64,000 nt of DNA from Anaerolineales bacterium (GTDB lineage Bacteria; Chloroflexota; Anaerolineae; JAAEKA01): assembly GCA_020634615.1 (NCBI GenBank), contig JACKBI010000019.1:52911-116910 (forward strand), in the 5' to 3' direction. Shown one piece after another: positions 34,331 through 44,765 of the stretch. The notes beneath the pieces are model-generated. The model did no database searches. It was not told where the DNA came from and saw nothing but the letters and a program-made list of their open reading frames with translations. The position numbers and the translations under genes were made by a program. Positions within the stretch are counted from its first letter, which is position 1, and each line of letters opens with the position of its first letter.

Positions 34331-34392
34331 ACAGAGTCTCACCGAACCGGAGACAGATTCGGTATCTTCGAAGGTAAAGTCGGAACATAAAA

Positions 34393-34423
34393 CGAGGCCC
34401 CGATCAGGTTGATCGGGGCCTCG
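34393..34423. terminator. Probable bidirectional terminator between convergent rnj and C25 genes
   Basis: CGAGGCCCCGATCA-GGT-TGATCGGGGCCTCG. Confidence 0.75.
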
Positions 34424-34444
34424 CATTTCAAGCAACTGAGGTTA

Positions 34445-38310: not shown

Positions 38311-38336
38311 CGTATGAATTACATTCACAGCACGCG

Positions 38337-38376
38337 AAATTGCAGCGCTTCTTCGAGCGCTGCAATTTTCTTTTTC
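38337..38376. terminator. Terminator-like hairpin
   Basis: AAATTGCAGCGCT-TCTTCG-AGCGCTGCAATTT followed by TCTTTTT on the + strand. Confidence 0.65.
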
Positions 38377-38569: not shown

Positions 38570-38764
38570 TTACAGACAAGTAGCGGTCGTGGTGCTTCCA
38601 GACGATGCAAGAGGACCAAGCAGTCCGGATGGTGAACCATGCGGCCCGGGGCCACCCTGCGCTTCAGCCATGAGCGGGCGTTCGAACGCTACCGAAGGTT
38701 CCTCCCAGGCCAAACGGGACGGCTGAACCGACTGTGTGGAACGATTGACATTAACGGTATTCAT
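38570..38764 (-). CDS. 64-aa putative RiPP precursor peptide
   Basis: AAGGAG SD before ATG 38764, 28 nt after the rSAM stop. Has a WEEPSV leader-like motif and a G/P/S/T-rich tail ending TCL. Confidence 0.7.
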   Translation of the reverse strand: MNTVNVNRSTQSVQPSRLAWEEPSVAFERPLMAEAQGGPGPHGSPSGLLGPLASSGSTTTATCL

Positions 38765-38792
38765 CTTGTACTCCTTGTGAAAGATTGCTTTG

Positions 38793-40004
38793 TCACGCAA
38801 CCAGGCTCATCTGCGGCCGTGGCTCAGCTACGAAACTATCGACCAACACGATCGGCTGCCCATTGGTCGGCTCTACTAAGGTGATCTCTCCGCGCCTCAA
38901 GCGAGCCTGCAACGGAGTTTCCGGTATCATTTGATTCGGGTGAATCTGAGCAAAGCGGGCCTGTGCTTGCGAACACGCCAGGGAATGTCCGCCATACAAG
39001 TCACCATGTTCCTTCCATGCCAGCCCCGAACACCGGCCCTCACAATAGCGGTTGATCGGACAGACATGGCACTCCGGCAGATTTTTCATCGTGTGCCGGC
39101 TGCGCAGTTGCTTGAAAATACCGCCGTTGTTCCAAATATCAATGAACCGGCGTTGACGAATATTGCCGCCGGGTATGCGCAGTTCAATGCACGGCAGCAC
39201 ATCACCATACGGGCTGATGAGGCAGGAACTCAAGCTCACCGAACATGTTCTGGTGGCCGGAGTCACGGTGCGCAAATCAAATGCCATTTGGTCCTGCCCA
39301 ATCAGGTCCGTGATTTGTTCGCGATCCAACTGATGCTCGGTCGCCTTGCTGCTGCCATCGTCGGCGGTTGAAATCTTGAACCCCTGCTCATAATCGACGC
39401 CCAACTCCGCAACCAGTTCAACCATCTGCTCGCGCTCAGCCAGGTTGAGGTCCATCATCAACGAAAACAGCTTGACACGCACACCGCGCTCTTGAAGCAA
39501 CTTGACGCCACGCACAACCCGACGCAGCGTGTCCTTGCTGCCGGCAATCGCATCGAAGGTCTTATCAGTTGCGCCCAGCAAGCTGATGTCCACTCGCAAC
39601 GGTGACAATGCCGCGATGCGATCGGCTTTCTCCGGTGTAATCAGGGTGCCGTTGGTCTTCAAGCTGAGGGCAAAGCCCAACGTGCGTGCTCGCTCAGCGA
39701 TCTCAAAAAAGTCGCGCCGCGACAGGATTTCGCCACCAGTCAACGACAAATACAGCGTGCCCGCCTCCGCAAGCTGATCCAGGACATCAAAACACTCAGC
39801 GGTGCTGAGTTCTGGTTGAGCAAGCGAGACATTGTAACACATTATGCAATCAAGGTTGCATTTATGCGTCAGTTCCCAAAGCACCGTAACCGGCAAAGCG
39901 TCCTGCTTGAAGCGCATCAATAGCGCTTCATAAGGATCGGCGGGCTGATCGGGCAGCGCACAACCGGCGAAATCCCGTACGAGAGGCTGCAATTCCTGTG
40001 TCAT
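38793..40004 (-). CDS. Radical SAM/SPASM domain maturase
   Basis: CNLDCIMC (CxxxCxxC), LTGGE, KTNG, and SPASM Cys set C..C..GDVLPC..CHVC..YCEGRC..C. Confidence 0.92.
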   Translation of the reverse strand: MTQELQPLVRDFAGCALPDQPADPYEALLMRFKQDALPVTVLWELTHKCNLDCIMCYNVSLAQPELSTAECFDVLDQLAEAGTLYLSLTGGEILSRRDFFEIAERARTLGFALSLKTNGTLITPEKADRIAALSPLRVDISLLGATDKTFDAIAGSKDTLRRVVRGVKLLQERGVRVKLFSLMMDLNLAEREQMVELVAELGVDYEQGFKISTADDGSSKATEHQLDREQITDLIGQDQMAFDLRTVTPATRTCSVSLSSCLISPYGDVLPCIELRIPGGNIRQRRFIDIWNNGGIFKQLRSRHTMKNLPECHVCPINRYCEGRCSGLAWKEHGDLYGGHSLACSQAQARFAQIHPNQMIPETPLQARLRRGEITLVEPTNGQPIVLVDSFVAEPRPQMSLVA

Positions 40005-40190
40005 CACCAGAGTCCGTTGTCAAATCCTGTCAATACAATAATGAGCTTTGCGGCATCGAATGCATTGGTGATCATAGCACTTTTGCCCATGTCCACTTCA
40101 ACCACCCAATGGCCCCTCGTAAAAATACGTGACCGCTTTGTCATCATGAAGGTTGTTGCCGAAACACCTGCCTTACCTATAGACCAAGGT

Positions 40191-40219
40191 ATTCTATCAT
40201 GAAGGTGTAACTGAGTCAA
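40191..40219 (-). promoter_or_regulatory. Strong internal sigma70 promoter upstream of the rSAM gene
   Basis: TTGACT-17 nt-TAGAAT with TGn extended -10. Confidence 0.65.
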
Positions 40220-40236
40220 TCTCCTGTCACCGATGT

Positions 40237-41964
40237 TCATTGGGTCACCTTTGGTGCTTGCCAGCGCTCCAGGTTGCCAGCTTCAACTGAATCATCGCGA
40301 ATGTACAGCGGTGCGTTCTGCAGCAAATAATCGATCTGGACTGGATTAGGCAGGTATCTCTGGCGGAAAACTTCATTCTTTACTACAGCAGTATTGTACG
40401 ACACGCCATACGTCCGTTCCTGATAGTCCAGCCACCAATCGAATTCGTTCAGTTCATGCGGCAGTAAGGGAGCGAAAATGTCTGGTTGCTTTGCAAGGCT
40501 GGTATCAACATCAAATTTATTGTGTCCAATCTGGTCGTTGCAGCACACCGGAGGACGTCTGGCGATGACAGGATCCGACTTACCCAACAGGTCGATGCTG
40601 TAGCGATGACTGAAATACGGGACGCCGCCGGCTGCAATAACTGCCACCCGGGCATCTGGTGCCGTGTAGCGATTGATCAACACACCAGCTACCGTTGTAT
40701 ACGCCAGGCCGCCGTTTTGTGAATATATCTTGCCGGGATAGAACACACCGGTACTGGCCAACGTTGCTATCGACAATGTCGCCAGGAGCAGAAACGAACT
40801 GGCCTGGTTCCAGCGGGCACCGAACTGAACTGCAGCGACGGCAGCAAGTACCAGAATCACCGGTACCTCGTGTGCAAGAAAGCGCGAGAATTCAAAAATG
40901 TCACCGCCAACCCGGAGGCTGTATCCCATAGCGATCACAACGCCCGCGAGCAGCAACCACCAGCGCCTTTGCGCTGCCAGGAGAGCGCCAATGCCTGCCA
41001 GGGTCAAAGCGGCAGCATAGTTGCCCACGAAAAAACGCACATATCCCACACCAATGCGGGGCAGCCCCTTGATGCCGTAGACCTTTAGATAGTACGTGTT
41101 CGGCAGCCAGTCGCCGTAATAACCGCGCCGCCACAGCAAATGAGCGAGCGGCAAGAGCAGGGAGATACCAAGAAACACCGCCGTCTTCTTGCGATCCTTG
41201 TTCACACCAATGGCCAGAAGCGCCGTACCAAACCAGATATGCAGAGCGTCGCTGCGCACCAGAGGAAGCAGTCCCATCAGCAGGTAGGTTGTCACCCGTG
41301 GCTGGCCGCTCTGCTCCTCGTCCAGCAATCGCACGACAACAGCCAGGAAGATGACCGTCAACAGAGTCGTTTCAAAGCCGTTGACCGACCAGAATAACAA
41401 GTCGCCACACAGGGCCAGAGTCAGCAGTACGGCCGGTAAAGCCAGGCCGGGCTTCGGCAGAAAGCGTCGCAGCAACCGTTCTGTCAGCAGCAACACCGCG
41501 AATGCCAGTCCGAGATTGATCAGCTTGACCGCCAGCGATGTCGTAGCATCTGGCAGCGGAAGCAGATGCACGCCAGCCATGACCAGTGTCCACAGGAAGT
41601 TACTGTATCCTTCAACGCGCTCGCCCGGGTTCCAGACCAGCCCGTGGCCCTCCGCCAGGTTGCGCGCGTAGCGCATCGAGATCATCTGGTCGTCGTCGAG
41701 CCAGAAGTAGCGCACGCCATCGATGCTGATGCTCGCTTGCCGAACGGCAAGGACTGTCATGGCAGCTACCAGACCAAAAGCCAGCAGCCGCCACAGAATC
41801 GGTGGACGATTCGCCAACCACTCCAGCACCGTTTCGAAGCGGCGGACCGATGCAATAGGAGTGACCAAACGCTGTTCTGTTGTCAAGGTGCTTTGCTCAG
41901 GCTCAGGACTCTGACCACTCCAACAGATCCCGCTCCACCAAGTCTTCGACAAAACCAGCGACAC
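40237..41964 (-). CDS. GT-C membrane glycosyltransferase, AftB-like (start uncertain)
   Basis: DDDQMISMRYARNLAEGHGLVWNPGERVEGYSNFLW motif and many TM segments. Confidence 0.8.
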   Translation of the reverse strand: MSLVLSKTWWSGICWSGQSPEPEQSTLTTEQRLVTPIASVRRFETVLEWLANRPPILWRLLAFGLVAAMTVLAVRQASISIDGVRYFWLDDDQMISMRYARNLAEGHGLVWNPGERVEGYSNFLWTLVMAGVHLLPLPDATTSLAVKLINLGLAFAVLLLTERLLRRFLPKPGLALPAVLLTLALCGDLLFWSVNGFETTLLTVIFLAVVVRLLDEEQSGQPRVTTYLLMGLLPLVRSDALHIWFGTALLAIGVNKDRKKTAVFLGISLLLPLAHLLWRRGYYGDWLPNTYYLKVYGIKGLPRIGVGYVRFFVGNYAAALTLAGIGALLAAQRRWWLLLAGVVIAMGYSLRVGGDIFEFSRFLAHEVPVILVLAAVAAVQFGARWNQASSFLLLATLSIATLASTGVFYPGKIYSQNGGLAYTTVAGVLINRYTAPDARVAVIAAGGVPYFSHRYSIDLLGKSDPVIARRPPVCCNDQIGHNKFDVDTSLAKQPDIFAPLLPHELNEFDWWLDYQERTYGVSYNTAVVKNEVFRQRYLPNPVQIDYLLQNAPLYIRDDSVEAGNLERWQAPKVTQ

Positions 41965-42187
41965 TCTGCCGGGCGTGCGGTAACTCCACTTCGAACTCCT
42001 GCGTCAGGATAACTGCGATATCCTCCAGCGAGTTTGTCCCGTTTGCCAGTTGCCAGATGCGCGAGCCGACAGGGTTGAGCATGCGCACCATGTTTTCCGC
42101 TGGACTGATGACCACCGCGTCGCTGCCGAAGACGCGCGAAGCGGTCGATGAGTGATGAACGGGTCTGCGAAGATCAATGTCATTCAT
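41903..42187 (-). CDS. Stand-alone PqqD-family RiPP recognition element (RRE)
   Basis: LNPVGSRIWQLANG..LEDIA..L..EFEV....ARQSV..FVEDL.ERDLL pattern, 94 aa. Confidence 0.88.
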   Translation of the reverse strand: MNDIDLRRPVHHSSTASRVFGSDAVVISPAENMVRMLNPVGSRIWQLANGTNSLEDIAVILTQEFEVELPHARQSVAGFVEDLVERDLLEWSES

Positions 42188-42192
42188 GCAAG

Positions 42193-43668
42193 TTACTGCC
42201 CCTTGAATGCAAGCATGACCTGGATGGTCCGTAGCATAATACGAATGTCCAGCAACGGGCTCATGTGGTTGACGTAGTACAGGTCATACTCCAACTTGAT
42301 TCGCGCATCATCGTCCGAGCTGCCGTAGCGGTAGCTCACCTGCGCCCAGCCGGTGATACCGGGCCGCACCGCATGGCGAGCCCGATAGAAAGGAATCGAC
42401 TGCGCCAGATGTTCGACAAATTCGGGACGCTCCGGTCGCGGTCCAATCAGACTCATCTCGCCCTTGAGAACGTTGATAAACTGAGGTAACTCATCCAGCC
42501 GCGTCTTACGCAGGAACCGCCCCACGGGAGTGATACGATCGTCGTTGGTAGTTGCCCAAACCGCGCCCGTCTCTGCTTCAGCATCCGGAATCATCGAGCG
42601 GAATTTGTAAACCAGGAAGGGTTTTCCGCCCTTTCCGACCCGATCCTGCTGATAGAACAATGGTCCGGGCGAGTTGAAATGATTGCCGATGGCAACAAAC
42701 ATCGCGACAACTGCCAGTACAATCATTCCAAATGCGGCAACGACTACGTCAAACAATCGCTTGACAGCAGTGTAAACGCGTTCTGATGGACGATCACCCG
42801 ACGGAAGCGCCAGATACAGGTCACGGCCAACGTGTTGAACGGGCACCCGGCCAGTGAGGTTTTCATACACGCTTGACATGGTCGTCACGTGGACGCCCAT
42901 TTCCCGGCAGCGCAACAATTCGTCGAACAGATCGTCGGCAATTGCATGCCGCTGCGTGATGGCCAGAATCAATTCATCGATATGCAGCGCGCTTGCCATC
43001 GGCACCAGCACATCGCGGCCACCCAATACCGGCACGCCGACAACCTGACCACCGGTCAATTCGGGGTTATCATCGATGAACCCCACCAGTTCGTAACCGG
43101 TGCCGCGGAAAGGGTTGGCATCGTGGGTAACATTGCCCAACGACTCGACCAATGTGCGCCCTGCCCAGCCAGCGCCGATAACCAGAGCCCGCTGGCGAAA
43201 CTGCGGCTGAACAAACAACTGGGCGTAGATAACACGCCACGAAACCAGTCCTCCGAGAACCAGCCCGGCAAAAGCAAACACCAGCGTTCGACTTTGAAGC
43301 GGTGGCGTCAGCCAGGGAATCAGCGTGTAGACCAGCACCGTGGTCAGCGCAGCCAGACCGATATTGCGAACGATATTTGTCGTGCTGGCAGAACGAGCCA
43401 GATTGTAGACGTCAAAAATGAAAGCGCTGACACACCAAACGATGGTCAGTGTAATATACCACTTGTAGGGGCTGACAATGGTCGCAAGACTGCGCCCTTC
43501 TTCTGTGGCCAGCAACCAAGGAATTGCCAACGCCAAATTGATAATCAGGACATCCACCAGGAAAAGAAATATCTTGCGCTCGGAGGTTCGTATCCTCAGT
43601 CGCGGCTTATTGAGCCAGTGTCGCTGGACCTGGCTACGCTGCTTGGCAGCGGTTGTTTCCAGTTTCAC
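42193..43668 (-). CDS. Polyprenyl-phosphate glycosylphosphotransferase (WcaJ-like priming sugar transferase)
   Basis: Four N-terminal TMs, Rossmann-like IGAGWAG, KRLFD, YKFRSM, RKTRLDELPQFINVLKGEMSLIGPRPERP, RPGITGWAQV. Confidence 0.93.
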   Translation of the reverse strand: MKLETTAAKQRSQVQRHWLNKPRLRIRTSERKIFLFLVDVLIINLALAIPWLLATEEGRSLATIVSPYKWYITLTIVWCVSAFIFDVYNLARSASTTNIVRNIGLAALTTVLVYTLIPWLTPPLQSRTLVFAFAGLVLGGLVSWRVIYAQLFVQPQFRQRALVIGAGWAGRTLVESLGNVTHDANPFRGTGYELVGFIDDNPELTGGQVVGVPVLGGRDVLVPMASALHIDELILAITQRHAIADDLFDELLRCREMGVHVTTMSSVYENLTGRVPVQHVGRDLYLALPSGDRPSERVYTAVKRLFDVVVAAFGMIVLAVVAMFVAIGNHFNSPGPLFYQQDRVGKGGKPFLVYKFRSMIPDAEAETGAVWATTNDDRITPVGRFLRKTRLDELPQFINVLKGEMSLIGPRPERPEFVEHLAQSIPFYRARHAVRPGITGWAQVSYRYGSSDDDARIKLEYDLYYVNHMSPLLDIRIMLRTIQVMLAFKGQ

Positions 43669-44765
43669 AGCAATCCCTCCGCCTTCCCCAGCCCAAGATA
43701 CATGGCGTTCAGCGATGCCTGCTCCAGTCCCCGTTGCTCATGGTACCAGCCTCTTCCTGCCTCACCCATCTGCTGGAGGCGCCCGCCATCAGAAAGTGCA
43801 GCTTGCCACGCGTCAGCCAGCGCGCGCGCATCGCCAGCGGGCACAACCCATCCGGTGACCCCATGTTGAACATACTCGCCCAACGCACCAACGTCTGTCA
43901 CGATAACCGGCTTTCCGAAGTAATAGGCGGATGCAATCAAAGCTGACTGGCTTGCATCGAGGTAAGGCAAGATAACTACGCCGCAACGACTAAACAGATC
44001 TATGGCCTCTGCATCATCGATACGGTGATTGCGGATTTCCACCGTTGCCGTATGTGGGGCTTCGGTGTCCAGGCCACCGGAGCCGGCCACGATGAGATTC
44101 ACGCCGATCTCACGCATTGGCAACATGCGCTCCGCATCGATCAATTGTGCAACACCCTTGTAGCGTTCGAGACGGCCAAAAAAGAGACCCCAGTTACCGT
44201 AGTCTACTTCAACTATACCAAGGCTGGCAAATCCCTCAAAACTGAGAAAAAGATGCAGCAAAGGCAGGTAACTGACGCGCCCTGCATCACAGCCGCCTGC
44301 AATCAATCGTCGGGCATAAACCTGTCCATGGACCAACAGATGATCGACTGATCGAATGATTGCGCGATTCCAAACTTTGATCAGTGAGCTGTAGCCCACG
44401 CCCAGGTGCGGGTCCAGATCGTGAAGCGTATGCACCACCGGAATGCCTTGCTTCCGCAGCCAGCGTACCAGCGGGACGTTCCACGCATGCACACCCGTGA
44501 TGTGAACCACATCGGGATCCAGCGAGCGGATCGATTTTGTCACCTGCCGGTAGCGGTCGCCGCGTAGTCCTTCGAACGAGAAGCCGGTGTTGTGTGTTGT
44601 GATCGGTGTGATGACTTGCACCGCCGGACTGTAGCGATCCCTGGCAAACGTCGTTGCGGTCACCAGCACCGTGTCATGCCCCTGCCCGGCCATGCGATTC
44701 GCCAGATCGGCGGTGTATTGGTGCATGCCAAAAGTGGGGGACAGCAGAACGTAGACGATACGCAT
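43665..44765 (-). CDS. GT4-family glycosyltransferase
   Basis: HTLHDLDPH, FFGRLERYKG, PYLDASQSA, GKPVIVTDVGALGE. GTGA overlap with the next gene. Confidence 0.9.
   Translation of the reverse strand: MRIVYVLLSPTFGMHQYTADLANRMAGQGHDTVLVTATTFARDRYSPAVQVITPITTHNTGFSFEGLRGDRYRQVTKSIRSLDPDVVHITGVHAWNVPLVRWLRKQGIPVVHTLHDLDPHLGVGYSSLIKVWNRAIIRSVDHLLVHGQVYARRLIAGGCDAGRVSYLPLLHLFLSFEGFASLGIVEVDYGNWGLFFGRLERYKGVAQLIDAERMLPMREIGVNLIVAGSGGLDTEAPHTATVEIRNHRIDDAEAIDLFSRCGVVILPYLDASQSALIASAYYFGKPVIVTDVGALGEYVQHGVTGWVVPAGDARALADAWQAALSDGGRLQQMGEAGRGWYHEQRGLEQASLNAMYLGLGKAEGLL

Follow-up and report, generated by a model that had tools for sequence, protein, structure and literature searches.

We analyzed a 64,000-nt stretch of DNA (the window) from an Anaerolineales bacterium of the Chloroflexota (assembly GCA_020634615.1, contig JACKBI010000019.1, positions 52,911 to 116,910), in which a row of minus-strand genes combines glycosyltransferases with the enzymes and precursor of a peptide made by ribosomes and modified post-translationally (RiPP). 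The locus is probably a rearranged member of a widespread, multi-phylum and uncharacterized family of RiPP systems that carry a radical S-adenosylmethionine (SAM) enzyme and are related to the kinase-tailored systems, that is, to those of lasso peptides and of linear polyphosphorylated peptides (LPPs). The results established here, from which this reading was drawn, are the gene content of the locus, the conservation of a cassette and the fold of a GT-C membrane protein. The conserved unit consists of a PqqD-family protein, a radical SAM/SPASM enzyme, a short Cys-containing peptide and a secreted C25 peptidase, to which most relatives add a kinase, a PF14907 nucleotidyltransferase and a SipW-like peptidase. 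The genes for the GT-C protein, a polyprenyl-phosphate glycosyl-1-phosphate (priming) transferase (PGT) and a GT4 glycosyltransferase form a lineage-specific glycan module that encloses this cassette, as LPP clusters sit in capsule loci. Three features are specific to this locus: the insertion of the GT-C gene, the Thr-rich tail of the peptide, and the splitting of the system over two contigs.

Most genomes of the same family have radical SAM orthologs with 57-74% identity, as do a few further families of its class. We compared 20-kb gene neighborhoods around these orthologs. In Caldilineae-like genomes, the gene order was constant: PqqD, radical SAM enzyme, peptide and C25 peptidase. GT4 and PGT genes were located directly upstream in some genera only; in other genera, two further genes upstream of PqqD encode a PF14907 nucleotidyltransferase (E = 2e-46) and a P-loop protein similar to ScmC and HprK. 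Related cassettes were detected in GTDB species genomes of Thermoflexales, other Anaerolineae, Acidobacteriota, Nitrospirota, Omnitrophota, Kiritimatiellia, Aerophobetes and Binatia. In a non-redundant set of 58 loci, each with PqqD or a kinase-like gene, PqqD was found at 55 and the HprK/ScmC-like kinase at 46. C25 domains, including those of giant DUF11-C25 proteins, were encoded at 31 loci, usually just downstream, the PF14907 nucleotidyltransferase at 22, and a SipW-like S26 peptidase (TIGR02228, 68.6 bits, above cut-off) at 16. Wzz/BY-kinase genes were present at 12 of the 58 loci, and PGT and GT4 genes at 10 each. A sequence-only reading of this DNA had taken the six genes from GT4 to the peptide as one conserved system. 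That claim did not stand, as in most related genomes the radical SAM and PqqD homologs are unaccompanied by the glycosyltransferases, an outcome that had been named beforehand as speaking against it. Absent from that reading were four conserved partners, the C25 peptidase, the HprK/ScmC-like kinase, the PF14907 nucleotidyltransferase and the SipW-like peptidase. Actinobacterial radical SAM matches (approximately 30% identity) lacked all partner genes and were set aside; our guess is that they are mycofactocin MftC.

The domain assigned to each of the six genes in the row was confirmed with Pfam and NCBIfam, and all six are co-directional on the minus strand. They encode the GT4 glycosyltransferase (43665-44765, 366 aa; Glycos_transf_1 and Glyco_transf_4, E approximately 1e-19), the PGT (42193-43668, 491 aa; Bac_transf 231 bits and TIGR03025 388.9 bits, cut-off 295.55), a stand-alone PqqD-family RiPP recognition element (RRE; 41903-42187, 94 aa; PF05402 54.9 bits), the AftB-like GT-C membrane glycosyltransferase (40237-41886, 549 aa from a TTG at 41886), the radical SAM/SPASM maturase (38793-40007, 404 aa; Radical_SAM 89 bits, SPASM 37.6 bits) and the precursor peptide (38570-38764, 64 aa). 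As the sequence-only reading had it, the stand-alone RRE lies between two glycosylation genes, those for the PGT and the GT-C protein, and the small peptide gene has a strong Shine-Dalgarno sequence (AAGGAG, 6 nt before the ATG at 38764). Of the junctions between genes that it listed, the GTGA overlap and the gaps of 5 nt and 28 nt are all correct. The overlap of PqqD with the GT-C gene is probably an artefact of the longest open reading frame (ORF; 575 aa, start at 41964), because orthologs begin with MTTEQ, which corresponds to the TTG at 41886 and leaves 16 nt between the two genes. In the structure model of the long form, residues 1-21 are disordered.

The precursor has a WEEP leader motif, an LGPL motif, a Thr-rich tail and a Cys at position 63. 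Orthologs were found in at least 18 related loci, and in their alignment W20, P23, E28, R29, L31 and C63 are invariant; this conservation bears out the expected logic of an RRE, a radical SAM/SPASM enzyme and a peptide. Peptides of the Caldilineae branch share a WExP leader and the LGPL motif, with one invariant Cys close to the C-terminus. Those of the wider family have the form KKPYxKPx...LRPEEAVLGxCK...C...C..GS. The leader motif is WxxP in this branch and YxxP elsewhere, and a short Cys peptide is encoded downstream of the radical SAM gene at nearly every locus. No NCBIfam model matched the precursors of this branch or of the wider family. The PqqD protein fell below the cut-offs of the ScmD, lasso, PQQ (pyrroloquinoline quinone) and GeoRSP models. 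In the radical SAM enzyme, the CxxxCxxC motif starts at C50, leaving no room for a fused RRE, as had been noticed. C50, C54 and C57 are invariant among orthologs, together with C255, C273, C313, C316, C322 and C326. All NCBIfam models were below cut-off for this enzyme, and its nearest full-length match in the PDB was PqqE (6c8v). A decarboxylation of the peptide C-terminus, as carried out by MftC, was considered as a possible reaction: MftC was among the top model matches of the enzyme, but at 127 bits (cut-off 265), and the C-terminus of the peptide is not conserved beyond the Cys. Residues 1-40 of the enzyme form an N-terminal extension in which, among orthologs, Cys16 is invariant and a DPYEALL motif is shared; this extension could be a docking site for PqqD.

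The C25 gene (34445-38227, minus strand) is co-directional with the peptide gene and directly downstream of it, and was judged the best conserved of the cassette's partners. It encodes a secreted, PorU/gingipain-like cysteine peptidase of 1260 aa (Peptidase_C25 249 bits) with a signal peptide, DUF11 and dockerin. Among PDB entries, the C25 domain matched best PorU (6za2), the sortase of the type IX secretion system (T9SS), with the GHG and AC catalytic motifs (His and Cys) aligned. Scores against PorU models were below their cut-offs (NF033707, 175.9 bits, cut-off 420; NF052324, 185.8 bits, cut-off 450). There were no matches in the genome to the T9SS C-terminal domain model TIGR04183, which was also unmatched in control genomes. 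In a C25 tree, the window protein represents a genus-specific lineage; a paralog on contig C4 is sister to the cassette-linked C25 of genus g3, in the same clade. At the acidobacterial loci L074-L087, the cassette is followed by giant proteins of approximately 2100-2900 aa that have many DUF11-type repeats and a C-terminal C25 domain.

Genes for the other partners were found elsewhere in the genome. Contig C4 (35692-41883) encodes a PF14907 nucleotidyltransferase (166 bits), a dockerin protein, the C25 paralog (970 aa), an S24/S26-like peptidase (S24-like, 20 bits, below cut-off) and an HprK/ScmC-like protein that was found by homology. No PqqD was found on this contig. The window copy is the sole WxxP precursor in the genome according to a motif scan of ATG-start ORFs, and the same scan found no second precursor near the C4 locus or near another locus, C11:24312-34957. 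Because the genome has one WxxP precursor, the C4 enzymes plausibly act in trans on the window peptide. The C11 locus, which ends approximately 18 kb before the start of the window, encodes a B12-binding radical SAM protein, an HprK-like protein (Hpr_kinase_C 29 bits), a second PqqD and two C25 peptidases; a SPASM radical SAM enzyme and a WxxP/YxxP precursor were not found there. A Wzz/BY-kinase gene is located approximately 11 kb further upstream. There are three loci in the genome that pair C25 with cassette-type genes, two of them with a kinase and two with a PqqD.

The 575-aa form of the GT-C protein is predicted to have a GT-C membrane fold, and the structure model supports this assignment. 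Its score against the AftB-type model NF041481 was low (E = 8e-9, 34 bits, cut-off 1050), and its best PDB match by sequence was AftB (9dlf, E = 3e-5; 18-20% identity). The AlphaFold model, made from an alignment of 55 sequences, had a mean confidence (pLDDT) of 92.3. A Foldseek search with this model returned AftB at the top (E = 7.6e-9, TM-score 0.57), then OST/PglB/AglB, ALG9/12, ArnT and PMT; the best 40 matches were all GT-C enzymes, in agreement with the AftB-like GT-C assignment made from the letters alone. The first outer loop has an L-D-D-D motif, with D91 and D92 conserved to 90% or more, that aligns with the A-D-D motif of AftB. The family has more than 1500 homologs and is without a Pfam model. 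A GT-C gene between PqqD and the radical SAM gene was found only in the genus of the window (genomes G001-G003) and on one related metagenomic contig. The SG(S/T)T(T/I)T tail before the Cys of the precursor was present in all GT-C-bearing lineages and not in other genera. The co-occurrence of the GT-C gene and the Thr-rich tail represents a single evolutionary event, because the GT-C-bearing lineages form one clade. On the related metagenomic contig, from a sister lineage, an SGNH/GDSL (AlgX-like) gene (L152:2135-3322) lies between the GT-C and radical SAM genes; the interval between PqqD and the radical SAM gene is therefore a slot for glycan-related genes. In a second genome of the genus (G002, locus L042), the island looks degraded, with the radical SAM gene split by a frameshift, the C25 gene fragmented, the peptide tail out of frame and the GT-C gene interrupted; an assembly error is possible. 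We also examined ten contexts of GT-C homologs with 48-55% identity. Two were directly beside lasso clusters, one was similar but truncated, and seven were without RiPP genes. The two lasso neighbors (GT-C identity 51-54%; unrelated contigs P0017, JGI 3300041966, and L145) encode PqqD, Transglut_core3, Asn_synthase and an HprK/ScmC-like protein, and P0017 additionally encodes PF14907, Wzz/BY-kinase and Wzy.

Polysaccharide genes were recurrent neighbors of the cassette. Wzz, PGT or GT4 genes were near it at 23 of the 58 loci, in several phyla, and were often interleaved with cassette genes (for example, at L038, L040, L046, L059 and L061). By our own rough estimate, based on 3-6 copies in this 5.5-Mb genome, a PGT or Wzz gene would be found by chance at approximately 1-2% of loci, and the polysaccharide genes recur around the cassette far above this estimate. 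Given the recurrence and the interleaving, a functional link between peptide and glycan, direct or indirect, is therefore possible, and their chemical coupling is also possible. The earlier proposal that joined the peptide to glycosylation is supported in part: some link to surface glycans is plausible in view of the exopolysaccharide-type genes at 23 of 58 loci and the GT-C genes beside two lasso clusters; its GT-C component was not general, as GT-C orthologs at the cassette were limited to one genus-level clade.

The composition of the island and the intervals between its genes were also analyzed. GC content is 0.52-0.59 over 34.5-44.5 kb of the window versus 0.60-0.65 in the flanks, so the impression by eye of an AT-richer block was accurate. 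The flanks have housekeeping genes, which on one side encode Nfo, a cobalamin adenosyltransferase and a cytidylyltransferase-family protein and on the other RNase J, PAP2 and an M20 peptidase. Ratios of nonsynonymous to synonymous substitution (dN/dS) between the window and G003 were 0.04-0.15 for all seven genes, including 0.04 for PqqD, 0.09 for GT-C and 0.15 for GT4; dS was saturated and the values are rough. The ratios suggest that all seven genes are under purifying selection. The 229-nt gap between the GT-C and radical SAM genes contains a promoter-like site (40191-40219, minus strand; TTGACT-17-TAGAAT, 10/12 matches, with TG before the second hexamer), which was identified by consensus match only, and a non-conserved ORF (orf78, 40004-40240), unmatched in sister genomes, that we treated as spurious. 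In the 342-nt spacer between the peptide and C25 genes there is a palindromic hairpin with a perfect 15-bp stem (38336-38369, no strand assigned), without a T-run on the minus strand. It is possibly an attenuator or an RNA-stabilizing element and may raise the level of peptide mRNA relative to that of C25. A terminator-like hairpin (34392-34424, minus strand; 15-pair stem with 10 GC pairs, followed by TTTAT) lies 3' of the C25 gene.

Extrapolation from relatives, the source of every mechanistic step, suggests how the system may work. The stand-alone PqqD would bind the WxxP motif in the leader of the 64-residue precursor and present the precursor to the radical SAM/SPASM enzyme, which would modify the core around Cys63, most likely by forming a cross-link that involves this invariant Cys and is probably a thioether. 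The kinase, PF14907 nucleotidyltransferase and SipW-like peptidase of C4, acting in trans, would probably add phosphate, possibly a sugar, and cleave off the leader. The product would then be processed, or used outside the cell, by the secreted PorU-like C25 peptidase. Several points weigh against this picture. The core has a single Cys, which leaves the partner in the cross-link undefined. Domain scans of the island and its flanking genes found no exporter, as the sequence-only reading had remarked, and no flippase, although the C25 and GT-C proteins act outside the cell. Trans action of the C4 genes was deduced solely from the single precursor, and the connection of the peptide to C25 comes from gene neighborhood alone. 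In addition, the loci were gathered through radical SAM homology, so the counts are not phylogenetically independent.

The place of the glycan genes can be explained in two further ways. All six genes could form one pathway, in which the PGT and GT4 enzymes would build a polyprenyl-linked sugar and the GT-C enzyme would move this sugar onto the exported, radical SAM-modified peptide, for example onto its Thr-rich tail, or would join the peptide to a glycan. Alternatively, the RiPP cassette and a small glycan operon could be coincidental neighbors in a low-GC island, with unrelated substrates; the GT-C, PGT and GT4 enzymes would make a surface polysaccharide and the peptide would be freely secreted. 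The gene order favors a single pathway: PGT, PqqD, GT-C and radical SAM genes are interleaved and co-directional, and the location of PqqD between PGT and GT-C in an operon is not what coincidence would predict. Purifying selection on GT-C, the restriction of the Thr-rich tail to GT-C-bearing lineages and the SGNH/AlgX-like gene in the same slot of a sister lineage point in the same direction, as do the two unrelated contigs on which a GT-C homolog adjoins a kinase-bearing lasso cluster with PqqD and the location of LPP and paeninodin clusters in capsule loci. However, the GT-C gene is limited to one genus-level clade and a single evolutionary event, most cassettes have no GT-C, PGT or GT4 gene, and the glycan genes around the cassette differ between lineages. 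Most GT-C homologs, seven of the ten examined, were in contexts without RiPP genes, AftB, the nearest solved relative, uses a glycan acceptor, and the island has neither a flippase nor a peptide exporter. The promoter-like site in the 229-nt gap could also uncouple the radical SAM, peptide and C25 genes from those upstream. Coincidence, in turn, does not readily account for Wzz, PGT or GT4 genes at 23 of 58 loci in several phyla, often interleaved, when the rough chance rate for PGT or Wzz is only 1-2% per locus. We regard the single pathway as unlikely, and coincidence as about equally so. If peptide and glycan are coupled, a ribosomal peptide would be covalently tied to surface-glycan assembly; if they are not, the glycan genes within loci of this kind would have to be left out of the peptide pathway. 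The genus is an unusually direct test case, with GT-C and priming transferase genes interleaved with those for the RRE and the radical SAM enzyme and with a Thr-rich tail gained.

The peptidase could also be the center of the system. The peptide might be a dedicated partner of the PorU-like C25 protein, as a substrate, adaptor or small subunit, and not a released product; the small subunit of quinohemoprotein amine dehydrogenase, which is modified by QhpD, would be a precedent. The occurrence of C25 genes at 31 of the 58 loci across phyla, the giant DUF11-C25 proteins of Acidobacteriota, the match to PorU with catalytic His and Cys aligned, and the three loci of this genome that pair C25 with cassette-type genes are consistent with such a role. 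About half of the loci have no C25 gene within the sequence examined, the PorU models were far below cut-off, the proposed interaction is deduced from neighborhood, and the likeness to the QhpD case is an analogy; we think a partnership of this kind rather improbable. A broader proposal, that the cassette is the core of an unrecognized cell-surface assembly system, is highly speculative. An exported, radical SAM-cross-linked peptide would be phospho-glycosylated or, in this genus, glycosylated by GT-C from a lipid-linked sugar, and would then be cut or ligated by a PorU-like C25 transpeptidase, so that the peptide would act as an adaptor that covalently links surface polysaccharide to proteins. 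If true, Chloroflexota and other phyla would have a counterpart of PorU and anionic lipopolysaccharide (A-LPS) or of sortase anchoring.

The reading that we prefer, a rearranged radical SAM-bearing relative of kinase-tailored RiPP systems, was compared with known systems by scoring the proteins against NCBIfam models at their own cut-offs; kinase models were scored on the kinase-like proteins of relatives. For SynChlorMet, the window PqqD had 33.7 bits against ScmD (TIGR04248, cut-off 100), scores for ScmE and ScmF (TIGR04250 and TIGR04251) were 91.1 and 71.3 bits (cut-off 400), and the kinase-like proteins had 34-35 bits for ScmC (TIGR04249, cut-off 125). Scores for GeoRSP were 97.7 bits (TIGR04303, cut-off 400) and 28.7 bits (TIGR04302, cut-off 100), and the score for HprK-related kinase A of the HPr-rel-A system (TIGR04352) was approximately 24 bits (cut-off 200). 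Those for PQQ were 113.8 bits for PqqE (TIGR02109, cut-off 381) and 31.7 bits for PqqD (TIGR03859, cut-off 46), and that for mycofactocin MftC (TIGR03962) was 127 bits (cut-off 265). Because all components fall below these cut-offs, the cassette belongs to none of these five systems. It shares with SynChlorMet a ScmC-like P-loop protein, a PqqD-like protein and the radical SAM/SPASM architecture, but SynChlorMet has two radical SAM enzymes in place of one, and the cassette here adds C25, PF14907 and S26 genes. The sequence-only reading had not recognized a characterized pathway; this was right insofar as no curated cassette matched (SynChlorMet, GeoRSP and HPr-rel-A were checked), although the related LPP family has already been described (PMC13381572). 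We found no paper joining a radical SAM enzyme or a C25 peptidase to this gene set.

Other systems resemble single parts of the locus. As in sactipeptide and ranthipeptide systems (AlbA, SkfB, PapB), there is a radical SAM/SPASM enzyme with the full set of auxiliary-cluster Cys residues, an RRE and a Cys-containing core; here, however, the RRE is stand-alone and not fused, the core has one conserved Cys, and family models were below cut-off. The mycobacterial arabinofuranosyltransferase AftB (9dlf, 9dlh) is the best match of the GT-C protein in sequence and fold and has the DD motif in the first loop, whereas identity is only 18-20% and NF041481 was far below its cut-off. The acceptor of AftB is a glycan, not a peptide, and we know of no arabinan from the source organism. 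The C25 domain has its best PDB match in PorU (6za2), with aligned catalytic motifs; the Chloroflexota host, the DUF11 and dockerin architecture and the sub-threshold model scores set the window protein apart.

The kinase-tailored systems are nearest in overall design. The lasso peptides paeninodin and pseudomycoidin have, like the family described here, an HprK-like kinase, a PF14907-type nucleotidyltransferase and a PqqD-type RRE. For pseudomycoidin, the C-terminal Ser is the residue phosphorylated by PsmK, and the addition of a hexose requires PsmN (PMC6993621); precursors of the wider family end in Gly-Ser, which fits a phosphorylated C-terminal Ser. In contrast, the Caldilineae branch mostly has Cys, or Cys and one residue, in place of that Ser, and the window locus has a radical SAM/SPASM enzyme instead of a lasso cyclase and B2 peptidase. 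The LPP family is the closest published system. In LPP clusters, a discrete RRE binds the leader at a [Y/W]xxP motif (Popov et al., Nat Commun 2026; PMC13381572); here too, a discrete PqqD-type RRE accompanies such a leader, with W20-x-x-P23 invariant. Embedding in polysaccharide loci is also shared. Counterparts of the HprK-like kinase, NTP transferase and SipW-like leader peptidase of LPP clusters are adjacent to the cassette in relatives; in this genome they are absent from the window island, and candidates for all three lie on C4, the peptidase among them with a score below cut-off. LPP clusters, known from Bacillota only and with a role that is unknown (PMC13381572), differ in having no radical SAM enzyme or C25 peptidase, a linear product and an MsbA-like exporter, whereas the window island has a radical SAM/SPASM enzyme and no exporter; the precursor cores are unrelated. 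Clusters for LPPs and paeninodin are both located in capsule loci (PMC13381572). Kinase-tailored peptides occur repeatedly in such loci; with the radical SAM-bearing family, this pattern spans five or more phyla and gains a secreted PorU-like protease.

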